A stretch of DNA of 63,725 nucleotides, counting the filler, from Reclinomonas americana ATCC 50394 (taxonomy: Eukaryota), in the NCBI GenBank assembly GCA_048213135.1. It is 17 parts of 17 records of this genome, joined end to end, with 100 filler letters (N's around TTAATTAATTAA, not from the genome) between each part and the next. Parts side by side here need not be neighbours in the genome. Positions count along the whole stretch, not along the records: positions 6,659 to 17,368 come from AFZH01017108.1; positions 17,469 to 22,191 come from AFZH01017109.1; 15 more parts are not named here. One strand, given 5' to 3'. The notes under the pieces are model-generated. The model was not told where the DNA came from. It worked only from the letters and a program-made list of their open reading frames with translations, and did not search any database. Numbering within the stretch: position 1 is the stretch's first letter; each line of letters begins with the position of its first letter. Below are positions 8,163 through 22,125 of this stretch, piece after piece. The translations under genes were made by a program, and so were the position numbers.

Positions 8163-11100
8163 TCACAACATCACGCCGGCCTCTCCTGCACGTCGTCGTC
8201 GACACTCCTCCAACCACTCTATTGCAGTCTCCACGTCCTCGTCTCCACGCGCTTGCCGACCATCCACGCACTCCACCAGCAGTGCCTCTGCCTCGGTCCA
8301 TCGCTGCAGCTTCGTAAACAGGATGCCGTAGTTGCACATCGTGTACAATGTATCTTCGTGTCTGTCACCCAACACCTGTCGTCTACCCTCCAAGCACTCA
8401 CGGTACAGCTCAGCAGCTTCGGCTAGTGCCTCTGCTGTGTTTTGTTGACAGAGAGAACGAGCAAGATTGTTCATCGACCCGAGTGTGTCCGGATGCCTGT
8501 CTCCCAGTGCAGCTCGTGTCAAGCGTAAACAGTCGCGCGTCATTTGAATCACTTCATCAAGCCGATTGCCACTTTTCCAAATACATGCGCCGAAGTTGTT
8601 CATTGACACCAACGTGTCGGGATGCCCGTCTCCAAGAACAAGTCTTCGCATCTCCCAGCACCGACGATGAAGTGTCTCAGCATCATTAAATCGCCTTTCA
8701 GCAAACTGGACATTGCCCTGTGATTGCAGCGTCATTAGGGAATCCGGATGACCCTCACCCAGTATCGCACACTGCCACTCATGACACTGCTGCAGAAGTA
8801 GCAAGTCGCGTGACCAAAAAGCAAACCACATCAAGCAACGGAATGCGTCAATCTTATCTAGCACAGTCATTTCGCCACTGTCATCCGTCTCCCACTCCTC
8901 ACACAATCGCCACGCCTGTTCCCACGCTGCGCTGCCTTCATCCCGCTGACAGTGCAACTCAAACAATCGCGCTTGAGACTTGGCCACCACCATGGCAATC
9001 CGTCGTCGCACAGGACTCAATTCAACATCACCATCTGCATCTTCTCCACACTCCGTCACGCGTCCAAAAAGCGACGAGGCCACTGCTCCCTCGAATCCTA
9101 CTGACGGCAGACGCTGCATCACACACTGCTCACCAATCCACTCCACTACCCCACAATGCAGCAGTAGCCCATTCACACCAACTGCATCACTCGCCCACAT
9201 GCCATCATCGTCACCCAACAGGCGCCACACCGTGTGCAGCACACCGAGCACGTCACGCGACACCAACAGCACACCGCCACTGTCCATCTGTGAATCGATG
9301 CCATTCAGCACACAACACACAAGTCGCACAATCAGTCGCTGCGTCCGTGACACTGCATCTCCACACCGTCCCACAATCCACCCAGCAATCTCATCGTGCA
9401 CTCGATATTCCATGGCAACGTTGCTCTCCCTCACTTGCTCGCCTGACAGCACACGCGCGACACTGTCCATGCTGCTACTAACACCAACCGTCACCAGATT
9501 CGACATGCACAGACCCTCCAGCACATCTTCCACTCCTTCACCAACACCACCACCTCCCACCAACTCAGCACGCCGTGCACGCACTCTTCGCTCCTCCTCC
9601 TCACTCATTTCGTCAAATTGCAGTCGCTCGCCCACCACCTCGGGTGCACGCCGTCGCCTATCCTGCGCCAGCTCGTGCAATCGCAGTCGACGCACACATT
9701 GACCCAACTCCACCAGTCGACATGCCGCCTCCTCATCTTCATCCACAGCAGCACGCTCACCAACATCACCACCACCCACAGCCACCGTCATATCGGGAAT
9801 CACTCGCAACACACCCAGCGCCACTCGTGCAAGTGCCACTGTCACCGGCAAACCGAGTTCCTTGCACGCGGTGATCAGCACCAACAGACGACGCGCTGCT
9901 GCTGTCTGTGACATCACAGTGCGCTCCAGCAGCTGCGACAGTGCATCGCCACCAACGCCACTCAGCACCTCCTCCAGTCGCGCTCCCACCAGCTGTGCTG
10001 GCGATTGTGACAGCAACCAGCTGCATGACGAAGAAGAGAAGGAGAGAAGAGTGAGTCTTCTCATCCGCACACCTTACTCACTCACACAAAGCACTGACCC
10101 AACACAAGCACTCACTCGCAGTGCACTCTTCTCCTGCTGTCCACTCTCCAGAGCCTCCACAATCCGTCGTCGCACATCCCCCGACGCCTTGTGGAGCAGT
10201 CGCTCCTCCACCAGCTGCACAATATCCTCGTTCTCCACACTCTCCACTCGCACGCACTCGACCTCCGTATCATGCATCATCGAGTCACGGATCTCATCCG
10301 CCACTCGCCCATATCGACTGGTCACCACCACAATCGGGGCCGCCATTCCACCTGCACAAGGCACGCACATGATTCACATCACGTCAGAATCCAACATCCA
10401 AGCGAGTATGAGAATTCTCTCGCACGACACACGCACCCTCTCCAGCGCACTGAATAACATTCCTCACTTGCTCCGCTGATACCACATTGTCCAGCACCAT
10501 CACTCCACTCGATGCATGCATCAGCTGTCGCAGCAGACGACGTGCTGGCTCCACCTCGCCACTCGCCAGCAGTGCATCAACCTGACCGGCCATCCTTGTT
10601 CCCTCCACTTCGTCCACTCGCATCTGCGCCGCCACAAAGGCACGCAGACACTCGCCCAGAGCATTCTTCGCCTGCAGCAAGTGGCATGGAGAGAGCGAGA
10701 GAGTCAGAATGGCAGTAGAAGGGGACGACGAAGCACGAAAGACGACATGCATGTCCCTCAGCACACCTTCACATGCTCCCTTGCATCACCCACATGACCG
10801 CGCATCTCCACCGACAGGGCTGATCCCTTCCATCGACGAGTCGCCTGTAACTCGGTCACCAGCAGCTCGGCCAGGAACGACTTGCCAGTGCCACCCTCTC
10901 CCGTCAGCACCACCATGATTGGATGGTGTGCTGCGCAAGAAATCATCCACCACAGCCAACATGATGAGACACACGAATGTGGAGAAGGAAGAAGGGGAGA
11001 AAGAGAAGGAACATCCAACCTTCTACAGCATCCACGACGCGCGTGGCGAGTGAGGCAGCCAGTGCACGCCGACTTGGGAAGCAGAATGCGGTCACTGGAT

Positions 11101-12560
11101 TGACGGTGCGGGCTATGAGAGGTGAATTGGGTGGGCGACTGCTGTCTGGTGCTGTGTGCCACAGAGAGAACAAGGGTGAGAACAGCAATGCATGTTGAAT
11201 GCATTCATGGAACACACCTGCAGCTGAGGGAGAAGAGGGCGAGATGCTTATAGTGCTCAGCTGTTGTTGCACACTCTCCACCTCCGCACGCATTGTCGCC
11301 TGCATCTCCATTCGCATCTGACCAGCCACTAGCAAGTGAGAACAATATCTGCAAGCGACCGCATCTGCATGCAGATCCACACAACTTGCTCCACACTGGC
11401 TGCCATCAATGTCTGGTCTGCTTGACTCAGTGCGCCTGCATTCACACAATCAAGACAGCATCAGCTTCCACAATCCATCAAATCATCAGCCATCTCTCTC
11501 CTCCCACTCACCATCACGAGCCTCGTTGAGCTGCACGACCAGTTCCTCCTCCACATCCCTGCCAATCTGCAACTGCCGCACAAGCTGGTGCAACTCGCCT
11601 TCTCCTCTTCCGTCACCGAGCAGAGGCACAAAGAGTGCACGAGCTCGGGCAGGACTCGCCAGTTCAACCACCTCCCTCATTCGCTCAATCGCATTGCGCT
11701 GCGGACAATGAGAGATTGAGAGACATAATCACACAAAGAGAGAGATCACACTCCTCCTCCTCCATCTCCTTCTCATTCCCTCACACACTCACCACATCGC
11801 CAGTTGGAATCAGACGATCCGGCTCGTCACTCGTGTGCTCTCGATGACCCGCCAACAGCAAGATCGAGCAGCACAGCATCGCATCAAACGAACTGCAGTC
11901 GTGTAGCTGGCCTCGTTGATGCCACTCGCGCACCGTCTGCAGCTCCTTCTCGTTCAGCTGGACAGACATGTCCATTCCGTCTGGCATGGTGCTGCAACGT
12001 GGGAAAGGCACAAAGAAAGAGAGGATGCTGGTGAGTGAGGAAATGCGTGTGACAAGAAAGAGAGGGCATTCATCGAGATAGAATGCCGAGTCGTGTGTGG
12101 TGCAATGAAGAGTGTGAGAATGGGGAGAAAGGGATGACCAGTGCGTCAACATGCTTGCTGCAATCCTTCTCTCTCCCCTCTCATTCACATCTCCCATCTG
12201 CATCTTGCCATTGTGTGCTTCCCACATCTTTCCCCACACACTCACCGCACATCCCGCTCACTCGGCGCCTTGCACCACTCGGCGACGTGATTCACACCGG
12301 GATATGAATCGAGAAACGCCGGCAGCACTTGCTCGAGTTTGGATTGCAGAGCGCGGGTGCATGGACGAGACAGGGCCTTGGCGAGGCGCATCATGTATTC
12401 TTCATCACCAGCATCGTGATGATGACTGCATGAGGGAGGAGAGGAGAGGAGAGTGACAGGGAACGAATCACACACGGTGTGAGACATGATGATGATGATG
12501 CATCTGACAATAACACAATGAGACCCGCAACTCACGCGGCACTCCACTCCCGCTCGCCAT
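8163..12560 (-). CDS. NLR-like STAND protein copy 1: N-terminal helical (HEPN-like) domain + NB-ARC-type NTPase + TPR repeats
   Basis: Multi-exon model starting MASGSGVP. Walker A VVLTGEGGTGKSFLA, Walker B VMVLDNV, sensor-1 IVVVTSR. The long last exon has ~42-aa kinesin-light-chain-type TPRs (LGDRHPDTLGSMNNLA). Confidence 0.88.
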
Positions 12561-20700: not shown

Positions 20701-22125
20701 AGCGGTGTCTTGAGTGGTCGACTGCTGTCTGGTGCTACGTGGTCCAAGGGGAGTGCGAGTGAGCAAGGCAATGCACACTTCAATGCAGGTCCATCATGGA
20801 ACACACCTGCAGCAGAAGGAGAAGAGGGGGAGATGCTCATCTGGTCGTCTCCTTCGTGCACTTCCAATCGCATCTGATCAGCCACAAGCAAGTGAGAAAC
20901 GATGAGTCATCTGCAAGCGACCGCCGCTTCACGCGAATCCACACAACTTGCTCCACGTGTTCCAGCAGCAATGACTGGTCTGCTTGACTCAGTGCACCTG
21001 CATGCACACACAAGCAAGAGAGCATCAGCTTCCACATTAAACTAAATCATCCACACACAAGCACCAAATCTCCCTCCACTCACCATCACGAGCCTCGTTC
21101 AGCTGCGCCACCAGCTCCTCCTCCACATCCCTGCCAATCTGCAGTCGCTGCACAAGCTGATGCAACTCGCCCTCTCCTCCTCCTCCGCCACCGAGCAGAG
21201 GTACAAAGAGTGCACGAGCTCGTGCAGGACTCGCCTCCTCAAACACCTCCCTCATTCGCGCAATCGCATCGCGCTGTGACAATAAGAAAGTGAGAGGTAC
21301 AATCACACAGAGGGAGATCACACTTCTCCTCCTCCTTCTCATTTCACACACGCACCACATCGCCTGCAGAATTCAGACAATCCGGCTCGTCTCTCGGATG
21401 CTCTTGATGACCCGCCAACAGCAAGATCGAGCAGCACAGCATCGCATCAAACGAACTGCAGTCGTGCAGCTGGCCTCGTTGACGCCACTCGCGCACCGTC
21501 TGGCGCTCCTCCTCGTTCAACTGGACACACATGTCCACTCCGTCGGGCATCGTGCTGCATGCGGGGAAAGGCACAAAGAAATGAGAGGATGCTGGTGAGT
21601 GAGGGAGTAAGTGTGACAAGAAAGAGAGGAGTTCATCAGGGATAGAATGTGGAGACGAGCGTGGTGAGATAATGAAGAGAGCGAGAATGGGGAAGAAGGG
21701 ATGACCAGTGCGTCACTATGTGCCACTTGCTGGTGGCAATCTCATTCACATCTCCCATCTGCATCTTGCCATTGTGTGCTTCCCACATCTTTCCCCACAC
21801 ACTCACCGCACATCCCGCTCACTCGGCGCCTTGCACCACTCGGCGACGTGATTCACACCGGGATACGAATCGAGAAACGCCGGCAGCACTTGCTCGAGTT
21901 TGGATTGCAGAGCGCGGGTGCATGGATGAGACAGTGCATTGGCAAGGCGAATCATGCATTCCTCGTCACCAGCATCGTGATGATGACTGCACGAGAGAAG
22001 AGAGGAGGAGAGTGGCATGGAAACGAATCACACACACAATGTGAGAATGATGATGATGATGCATCTGACAACAACACAACGAGAGAGACACTCAACTCAC
22101 GCGGCACTCCACTCCCACTCGCCAT
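17778..22125 (-). CDS. NLR-like NB-ARC-TPR protein copy 3
   Basis: Same exon structure: GDGGTGKS, MMVLDNV, IVVVTSR, TPRs (LGDRHPSTLTSMNNLA). Confidence 0.88.

Follow-up and report, generated by a model that had tools for sequence, protein, structure and literature searches.

Do the three similar genes that lie head to tail in a 63,725-nucleotide stretch of DNA from Reclinomonas americana ATCC 50394 (GenBank assembly GCA_048213135.1) encode immune receptors related to the NOD-like receptors (NLRs)? This stretch, filler included, is the whole of what was analysed and is referred to below as the window. A first reading of the sequence alone had proposed a tandem trio of genes with an NB-ARC nucleotide-binding domain followed by tetratricopeptide repeats (TPRs), and a role in innate immunity or allorecognition. 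On the basis of our analysis, we consider it somewhat probable that the trio consists of three functional paralogs arranged in tandem, of about 1,100 amino acids (aa) each, that they encode STAND-type, NLR-like proteins of a lineage-specific family, and that their likeliest role would be sensing in defence or in self/non-self recognition. The three copies, each with an intact open reading frame (ORF), are as follows.

8163-12394, minus strand: copy c1, 10 exons, 1108 aa, GT-AG at all 9 introns, intact ORF
12246-12394, 11793-11991, 11512-11698, 11386-11435, 11218-11317, 11020-11151, 10767-10930, 10437-10671, 10099-10351 and 8163-10020, minus strand: exons of c1
12935-17136, minus strand: copy c2, 10 exons, 1101 aa, GT-AG introns, intact ORF
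16988-17136, 16537-16735, 16250-16442, 16124-16173, 15988-16054, 15786-15917, 15538-15701, 15211-15445, 14874-15126 and 12935-14798, minus strand: exons of c2
17778-21955, minus strand: copy c3, 10 exons, 1088 aa, GT-AG introns, intact ORF
21807-21955, 21356-21554, 21084-21273, 20948-20997, 20807-20873, 20603-20734, 20353-20516, 20024-20258, 19685-19937 and 17778-19605, minus strand: exons of c3

Self-BLASTN of the window placed three head-to-tail units on the minus strand at approximately 8160-22190, with a repeat period of 4.77-4.84 kb and a DNA identity between units of 80-87%:

8161-11248 versus 17776-20837: 80.2% DNA identity
13012-17364 versus 17852-22187: 83.0% DNA identity
11301-12623 versus 16038-17365: 86.7% DNA identity

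A single gene model derived from the three-way alignment of these units fitted all three copies. It comprises 10 exons, separated by introns of 66-95 nt and one of about 250 nt, with GT-AG borders in all 27 introns and identical intron phases across c1, c2 and c3. The earlier proposal of a tandem trio of intact multi-exon paralogs therefore stands, whereas its gene size of about 4.4 kb should be corrected to about 4.2 kb, measured between the start and stop codons. No fourth copy was found elsewhere in the window by tblastn with the three models.

The c1-c3 alignment provided further information on the exon calls. Indels in exons were either absent or multiples of three (3, 6, 9, 24 and 14+19=33), the one exception being a run of gaps over 7 columns at the last-exon alignment's 3' end, whereas indels of 1-2 nt occurred in every intron. 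Conservation was 0.87-0.96 in most exons versus 0.64-0.90 in most introns; exons E4a, E4b, E5 and E9 were less conserved (0.70-0.85, one pair 0.93), and intron 3 was unusually conserved between c1 and c2 (0.96). Because indel phase and exon-versus-intron conservation differ as expected for coding sequence, the exon calls are independently supported. The start codon chosen was the first ATG conserved in frame. The least certain junction is that of the 50-nt exon E4a (11386-11435 in c1), which is required for the frame in all three copies. A two-gene model, splitting the unit at the ATG that opens exon E4b, was also considered and is unlikely, as the gap would be shorter than 70 nt and E4a restores the frame in each copy. 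In addition, approximately 230 bases 5' of each predicted start (12395-12623, 17137-17365 and 21956-22187) are 89-92% identical between copies and contain a conserved ATG and, after it, a GTGAGT for which no in-frame junction with exon 1 is possible. This stretch may be an intron of the 5' untranslated region or an upstream ORF.

It is extremely improbable that the copies are decaying pseudogenes or an artefact of assembly, a possibility raised by the runs of N beside two of the units (17369-17468 and 22192-22291). The copies share 77-80% of their amino acids in pairwise comparison, with a synonymous divergence (dS) of 0.36-0.42 and a ratio of nonsynonymous to synonymous divergence (dN/dS) of 0.32-0.35. 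Such values of amino acid identity and dS rule out assembly duplicates, in line with the sequence-only reading, and the nucleotide divergence of 13-20% points in the same direction. Considering also the intact ORFs, the conserved GT-AG splice sites and intron phases, the nearly complete restriction of exon indels to in-frame lengths and the dN/dS values, c1-c3 are real paralogs under purifying constraint rather than pseudogenes.

The predicted layout of each protein is an N-terminal region of about 235 aa, a P-loop nucleoside triphosphatase (NTPase) of putative STAND type, about 420 aa of orphan helical sequence and five TPRs of the kinesin light chain (KLC) type. Its parts are located as follows.

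11218-12394, minus strand: N-terminal region of c1, exons E1-E4b, aa 1 to ~235 (c2 15988-17136, c3 20807-21955)
10099-11151, minus strand: NTPase exons E5-E8 of c1, aa ~236-455 (c2 equivalent 14874-15917, c3 19685-20734)
10767-10930, minus strand: c1 exon E6, with Walker A motif GEGGTGKS
10437-10671, minus strand: c1 exon E7, with Walker B motif VMVLDNV
10099-10351, minus strand: c1 exon E8, with VVVTSR motif
8865-10020, minus strand: middle orphan region of c1, first ~385 aa of the last exon (c2 ~13637-14798, c3 ~18477-19605)
8166-8864, minus strand: TPR array of c1, five 42-aa KLC-type repeats (c2 ~12938-13636, c3 ~17781-18476, starts approximate)

The C-terminal repeats were the most readily recognized part. 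In the last exon of each copy, Pfam reported TPR_10 (E 9.7e-20 to 4e-31, 70.4-106.6 bits, cut-off 27.5) and TPR_12 (E 8.5e-23 to 3.1e-25, 80.8-88.6 bits, cut-off 30.1), with a recurring LG..HPDTL..M motif; the matches in the last exons were to TPR families only, and none was to a leucine-rich repeat (LRR) family. An AlphaFold2 (AF2) model of the last exon only, built on the alignment of the three copies, was confident only at last-exon residues ~390-615, where the predicted local distance difference test (pLDDT) was 80-95. By Foldseek, this confident part matched the TPR domain of KLC1 (7ai4_A, E 1.6e-8, template modelling score normalized to the target, TM(target), 0.78, 23% identity); TM(target) was 0.78-0.82 over the KLC1-TPR matches, and a Podospora protein (4y6c) was matched in its TPR repeats as well. 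The model thus shows a TPR solenoid fold for the C-terminus, and the earlier claim of TPRs behind the NTPase is borne out. Similar TPR arrays are common: at least 1399 proteins carried them at E<=1e-10 among 8000 scored, the best identity being 44%. A single-protein scan for bacterial loci related to the TPR part found none. Among 120 listed matches, the modules located N-terminal to such TPRs included NB-ARC, NACHT, kinase, TIR, CHAT and DUF7779. Because such arrays follow many different N-terminal modules, the TPRs alone say nothing about the NTPase.

Which kind of P-loop NTPase precedes the repeats? All three copies contain G[ED]GGTGKS, [VM]MVLDNV and VVVTSR, invariant or nearly so in the c1-c3 alignment, so that Walker A, Walker B and the sensor-1 motif are intact in each copy, as first noticed. 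dN/dS across the NTPase was 0.12-0.29. Exon-wise Pfam was nearly blind to the domain because it is split over four short exons. The Walker A exon gave only sub-threshold matches with generic P-loop families (AAA_22, AAA_16, nSTAND3, AAA_25, NPHP3_N and NACHT, E 0.02-0.1), Zeta_toxin and AAA were also among the similarly weak exon-wise matches, and the remaining NTPase exons had no Pfam match. In the scan of 10 single-exon peptides (E5 of c1; E6, E7 and E8 of c1-c3), NB-ARC was not listed even at E up to 10.

For this reason, the spliced models were compared profile to profile. The reference set consisted of 27 P-loop+TPR proteins out of 120 fetched TPR proteins, 14 of the 27 carrying a precomputed PF00931 label, together with bacterial reference loci for NACHT (25), NB-ARC (5), AAA_16 (19 usable out of 25), FtsH-type AAA (25) and nSTAND3 (11 usable out of 12). 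With the spliced non-TPR profile as query, HMMER returned nothing from the 120 TPR proteins (best E 0.33). By hhalign, aa 236-780 matched the 27 P-loop+TPR references with a probability of 95.3-95.5% (E 2e-8 to 5e-9), whereas reversed or shuffled queries reached 0.0-0.2%. The NTPase core, aa 236-455, accounted for the entire signal (95.2%, E 2.8e-8 versus the 27 references), and G[ED]GGTGKS, VLDN and VVTSR were set on the Walker A, Walker B and TTR/SSR sensor motifs of the references. The core was also compared with each class by hhalign, where its reversed or shuffled controls gave 0.1-0.6%:

nSTAND3 profile: probability 95.6%, score 60.9, E 1.1e-8
NACHT profile: probability 92.9%, score 50.3
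Bacterial NB-ARC profile: probability 92.3%, score 51.1
AAA_16 profile: probability 91.0%, score 47.8
NB-ARC-labelled TPR proteins profile: probability 87.0%, score 45.2
Unlabelled P-loop TPR proteins profile: probability 85.2%, score 43.9
FtsH AAA profile (control): probability 58.9%, score 37.7, E 9e-5

Judged from its sequence, the NTPase core appears STAND-like rather than classical AAA+, with a moderate margin over FtsH. In two quick maximum-likelihood trees the trio fell inside the STAND assemblage, apart from FtsH, with support of 99 and 100 in the Shimodaira-Hasegawa-like approximate likelihood ratio test (SH-aLRT), on a very long stem of 1.6-2.3 changes per column in both trees. Taken together with the hhalign scores, this agrees with the earlier expectation that the NTPase would group with STAND proteins and not with other P-loops. 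It could be argued that the NTPase belongs to another P-loop class, AAA+-like or other, fused to helical repeats, so that the likeness to NLRs is superficial. The similarity is indeed confined to the ~220-aa NTPase core, FtsH AAA still reaches 58.9% with E 9e-5, there is no detectable winged helix, and AAA_22, AAA_25, AAA and Zeta_toxin are among the similarly weak Pfam exon matches. We nevertheless regard this explanation as improbable: all five STAND-type profiles score 6-23 units higher than FtsH, TPR-associated NB-ARC-like references align with the trio at the Walker B 'DN' and at TSR, and the trio is nested within the STAND rows in both trees.

The NB-ARC label of the sequence-only reading is not established, because nSTAND3, NACHT, NB-ARC and AAA_16 scored about equally and the approximately unbiased (AU) test rejected neither a union with NB-ARC-like rows (p 0.739) nor one with the main NACHT clade (p 0.546). 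Both trees placed the trio within a clade holding all NB-ARC-labelled rows, with an SH-aLRT of only 91 and 85, and the trio has Walker A (GxGGxGK[ST]) and Walker B ('DN') in the forms seen in the TPR-associated NB-ARC-like references. The core may therefore lean weakly to the NB-ARC-like rows, which is a lean and not a proof. GLPL and MHD are motifs located after the NTPase core of NB-ARC. In a part of the hhalign alignment that has no significance of its own, no LPL stood opposite the LPLA columns of the references (...VEALESG/QQEKS... was found there), and RLRLHELAQ, with its His retained, stood opposite the H-R-L-V columns. Two candidates read by eye, a 'GLPL' in CKELGLPV (GLPV, aa 556-559) and an 'MHD' in YRVHDE (RVHD, aa 698-701), were rejected, since hhalign aligned other columns to LPLA and HRLV.

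About 60% of each protein, that is, the N-terminal and middle regions, has no detectable relative. By eye, the N-terminal region comprises a block of ~115 aa, a charged helical stretch and a Ser/Pro-rich linker. It is coding and under constraint (dN/dS 0.25-0.44). Pfam scans of 10 exon peptides at E up to 10 assigned it to no family (three unrelated single matches, E 0.046-0.084), PADLOC reported nothing for it, ESM Atlas gave no match with a family for exon 2, and hhalign against the reference NOD (nucleotide-binding oligomerization domain) parts and the trio's own TPRs reached at most 1.6%. Of the 'tripartite' organization proposed earlier, the order of an NTPase followed by TPRs was confirmed, whereas the N-terminal part had only been assumed and its 235 aa match nothing.

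The middle region, together with the end of E8, forms the ~420 aa (aa ~456-880) between the NTPase and the TPRs. AF2 modelled it as all helices with low confidence (pLDDT <50, last-exon residues 1-384). No relatives were found at E<=0.001 in 1,835,955,588 representative proteins by HMMER profile search, and none in 5.8 billion clusters by a word-based search in 'longer' and 'near' modes. Nothing credible was found in PDB, where only one match, to 37 residues of FUBP1 (E 0.005), fell below E 0.01 and was taken by us as chance; ESM Atlas gave only weak TPR-like neighbours (recognition 2052, below the reliability mark). By hhalign, aa 456-780 reached 0.2% against the post-NTPase part of the reference NODs, an absence of signal that may reflect divergence. 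Hidden TPRs in the middle region were also considered and rejected, as six segments of it reached at most 2.5% against the trio's own TPR array.

Comparison of the copies revealed that the gene has not diverged uniformly along its length. dS was 0.13-0.51 over the first 800 codons versus 0.56-1.6 over the last 300, and nonsynonymous divergence (dN) was highest at the linker/TPR end (0.22-0.34 versus 0.02-0.15 upstream). dN/dS ranged from 0.12 to 0.84 over all codon windows, never exceeding 1, and peaked at 0.43-0.84 at codons 801-900. The most alike pair of copies also shifted along the unit: in stretches of 40 informative sites, c1 and c3 agreed at 27 (12305-12087), c1 and c2 at 29 (11535-11370), and c2 and c3 at 22 in each of two stretches (10800-10579 and 8622-8517). 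The number of runs over all 933 informative sites was 524, compared with a mean of 620.6 after shuffling, and none of 5000 shuffles gave a number as low. Because the closest pair changes along the gene and there are too few runs, gene conversion or unequal exchange between the tandem paralogs is indicated. The data suggest that this mosaic exchange was stronger in the 5' two-thirds and that the sensor end is older and more diverged, which makes the cluster a compact example of the two patterns side by side. Together they are compatible with receptor diversification, of which they are no proof.

How might such a protein work? By analogy with characterised STAND proteins, the resting state would be an autoinhibited monomer bound to adenosine diphosphate, in which the TPR/helical part folds back onto the NTPase. 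Once the TPR sensor had bound a ligand, either a non-self or a modified self protein, nucleotide exchange and oligomerization would follow, and the latter would gather the N-terminal regions for signalling. The TPRs would thus combine the functions of sensor and autoinhibitor, and the N-terminal region would be the end that signals. We infer a putative role in immunity or allorecognition only from the architecture and the clustering.

A STAND-TPR family with a non-immune role, for example a signalling scaffold or regulator duplicated for dosage or subfunctionalization, is possible, though we judge it unlikely. In keeping with such a role, purifying selection acts in every codon window of the gene, with no sign of positive selection; TPR_10/12 arrays are joined to kinase, CHAT and TIR as well as to NB-ARC and NACHT among the 120 listed matches; and the flanking genes (SelO, Med18, pectate-lyase-like and Exo_endo_phos) are ordinary ones. 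On the other hand, a mosaic tandem array, divergence at the repeat end and lineage-restricted sequence occur more typically in receptor families than in conserved scaffolds.

Several points weigh against the interpretation of the trio as STAND-type, NLR-like receptors. First, no TPR window reaches a dN/dS of 1 (the highest, 0.84, is at aa 801-900), so that diversifying selection is not indicated. Second, the single-exon Pfam matches are of generic P-loop kind and below every gathering threshold, and NB-ARC was never listed. Third, the margin of STAND over FtsH AAA is moderate (scores 44-61 versus 38); it should be noted that nSTAND3 itself scores 60 versus FtsH. Fourth, a winged-helix/ARC module was not detected by HMMER, hhalign, AF2 or PDB searches, which means that a complete STAND NOD is not demonstrated. 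Finally, the N-terminal 'effector' is purely hypothetical, and the start codon and exon E4a are predicted placements made by sequence logic only.

With these points in mind, the receptor interpretation may be extended in a more far-reaching form, which we regard as doubtful. The trio would represent a receptor family restricted to one lineage, with no parts other than the NTPase core and the TPRs coming from known modules, the 235-aa N-terminus being a new signalling or execution domain and the ~420-aa region a new arm that replaces the ARC/winged-helix part; gene conversion would act upstream while the sensor end diverged freely, and the whole would serve innate immunity or allorecognition in an unsampled lineage of eukaryotes. 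Should the family be a receptor, a new effector domain may make up its signalling end, and if the locus serves immunity or allorecognition, NLR-like sensing would be extended to another eukaryotic lineage. Moreover, since standard exon domain scans miss the NTPase, surveys of NLRs by NB-ARC or NACHT profiles would overlook this family.

The surroundings of the trio were also inspected. The window is eukaryotic, as indicated by its short GT-AG introns and a Med18 gene. The base composition of the trio (G+C fraction 0.51-0.57) matches the rest of the window and therefore gives no sign of a foreign insert. The other genes or gene fragments identified are as follows.

29711-30178, minus strand: rhamnogalacturonase/pectate-lyase-like exon, Pfam E 1.6e-13
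53142-53687, plus strand: Exo_endo_phos fragment, Pfam E 0.0014
59276-61166, plus strand: SelO adenylyltransferase, Pfam E 2.1e-15
62403-63326, plus strand: Med18, Pfam E 5.9e-5

A pair of PhyH-like ORFs was noted by eye at 6095-7881 (minus strand), with no Pfam match on 7006-7881. Self-BLASTN also revealed a second tandem duplication, 43830-46343 and 48070-50592, which is 84% identical over ~2.4 kb and holds minus-strand ORFs at 44529-45509 (326 aa) and 48795-50039 (414 aa); Pfam gave a weak H-type lectin match in one copy (E 0.0085, below the cut-off) and none in the other. An identical pattern of N (44 N, 12 bases, 44 N) occurred sixteen times, at 2683-2782, 4678-4777, 6559-6658, 17369-17468, 22192-22291 and 11 other positions, mostly beside (CT)n or low-complexity sequence, and trio units are flanked by two of these. 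The patterns look like masking or scaffold gaps and not biology. (CT)n tracts are frequent between genes in the window. Dense short tandem or low-complexity repeats were found by self-BLASTN at 1923-2341, 23771-24288, 53077-53425, 54172-54755 and 59834-60237, and give rise on both strands to long pseudo-ORFs rich in Ser/Leu, Ser/Pro or Arg/Glu.

How does the trio compare with known systems? In fungal NLRs, NB-ARC is described as preferentially followed by TPRs, and about half of the N-termini are without annotation (Dyrka et al., 2014; PMC4986451). On that account, the unannotated N-terminus of the trio is not unusual for the class. With fungal and bacterial NB-ARC-TPR proteins the trio shares the order of an N-terminal region, a P-loop NOD and 42-aa TPR_10/12 repeats, as well as Walker A GxGGxGK[ST], Walker B hhhhDN (h, hydrophobic) and a subsequent TTR/TSR motif; its TPRs are 26-44% identical to those of the P-loop+TPR references. 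It differs from the NB-ARC-TPR references in a NOD too divergent for HMMER, of which only the NTPase core aligns by hhalign, in having no detectable counterpart of the LPLA position or of the post-NTPase (DUF7779) region, and in the stretch from NTPase to TPRs (~420 aa versus ~250 aa in the references). The trio is not an NLR in the strict sense (NOD plus LRR), and the term 'NLR-like' applies to it only in the broad usage that Dyrka et al. adopt for fungi (PMC4986451).

Bacterial nSTAND3 proteins (Pfam PF20720) gave the best profile score to the NTPase core and have a comparable layout of effector, NTPase and C-terminal sensor region. In two of the three scanned (L083, L085 and L087), the N-terminal domain was a restriction endonuclease of the Mrr_cat family. 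The trio has no such nuclease N-terminus and lies outside the nSTAND3 clade in the tree, and no Pfam TPR match was found in the three nSTAND3 proteins. The TPRs of kinesin light chain (PDB 7ai4 and 3nf1) and the Podospora TPR repeats (4y6c) match the fold of the C-terminal 230 aa of the trio, whereas KLC has no NTPase, so that the likeness is limited to the repeat module.

Among other eukaryotes, Ectocarpus is reported to have 24 NB-ARC-TPR genes, a candidate receptor family whose members are born and lost at high rates (Zambounis et al., 2012; PMC3341825). Like the trio, this is a multi-copy STAND-TPR family of a non-plant, non-animal eukaryote. In that account each TPR occupies one exon and the exons are shuffled, whereas all five TPRs of the trio lie in a single last exon of 1.83-1.86 kb and vary by point divergence and gene conversion; furthermore, the Ectocarpus family is described as NB-ARC, a membership not established for the trio. 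An NB-ARC-TPR homologue in Acanthamoeba castellanii, a protist with a compact and intron-rich genome, has been presented as a possible pattern-recognition receptor with a recognisable disease-resistance signature, IPR000767 (PMC4053784), whereas no such signature is assigned to the trio. The features that set the trio apart from these families are an NTPase for which no clade could be picked, an ARC/winged-helix part that is missing or unrecognisable, an unrecognisable N-terminus and TPRs in a single exon. Since STAND-TPR or NB-ARC-TPR proteins are described in fungi, Ectocarpus and Acanthamoeba in the accounts cited here, the trio is not a new kind of protein; the architecture is already known from fungi, bacteria, brown algae and amoebae, and the R. 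americana genes are a very divergent addition to it.

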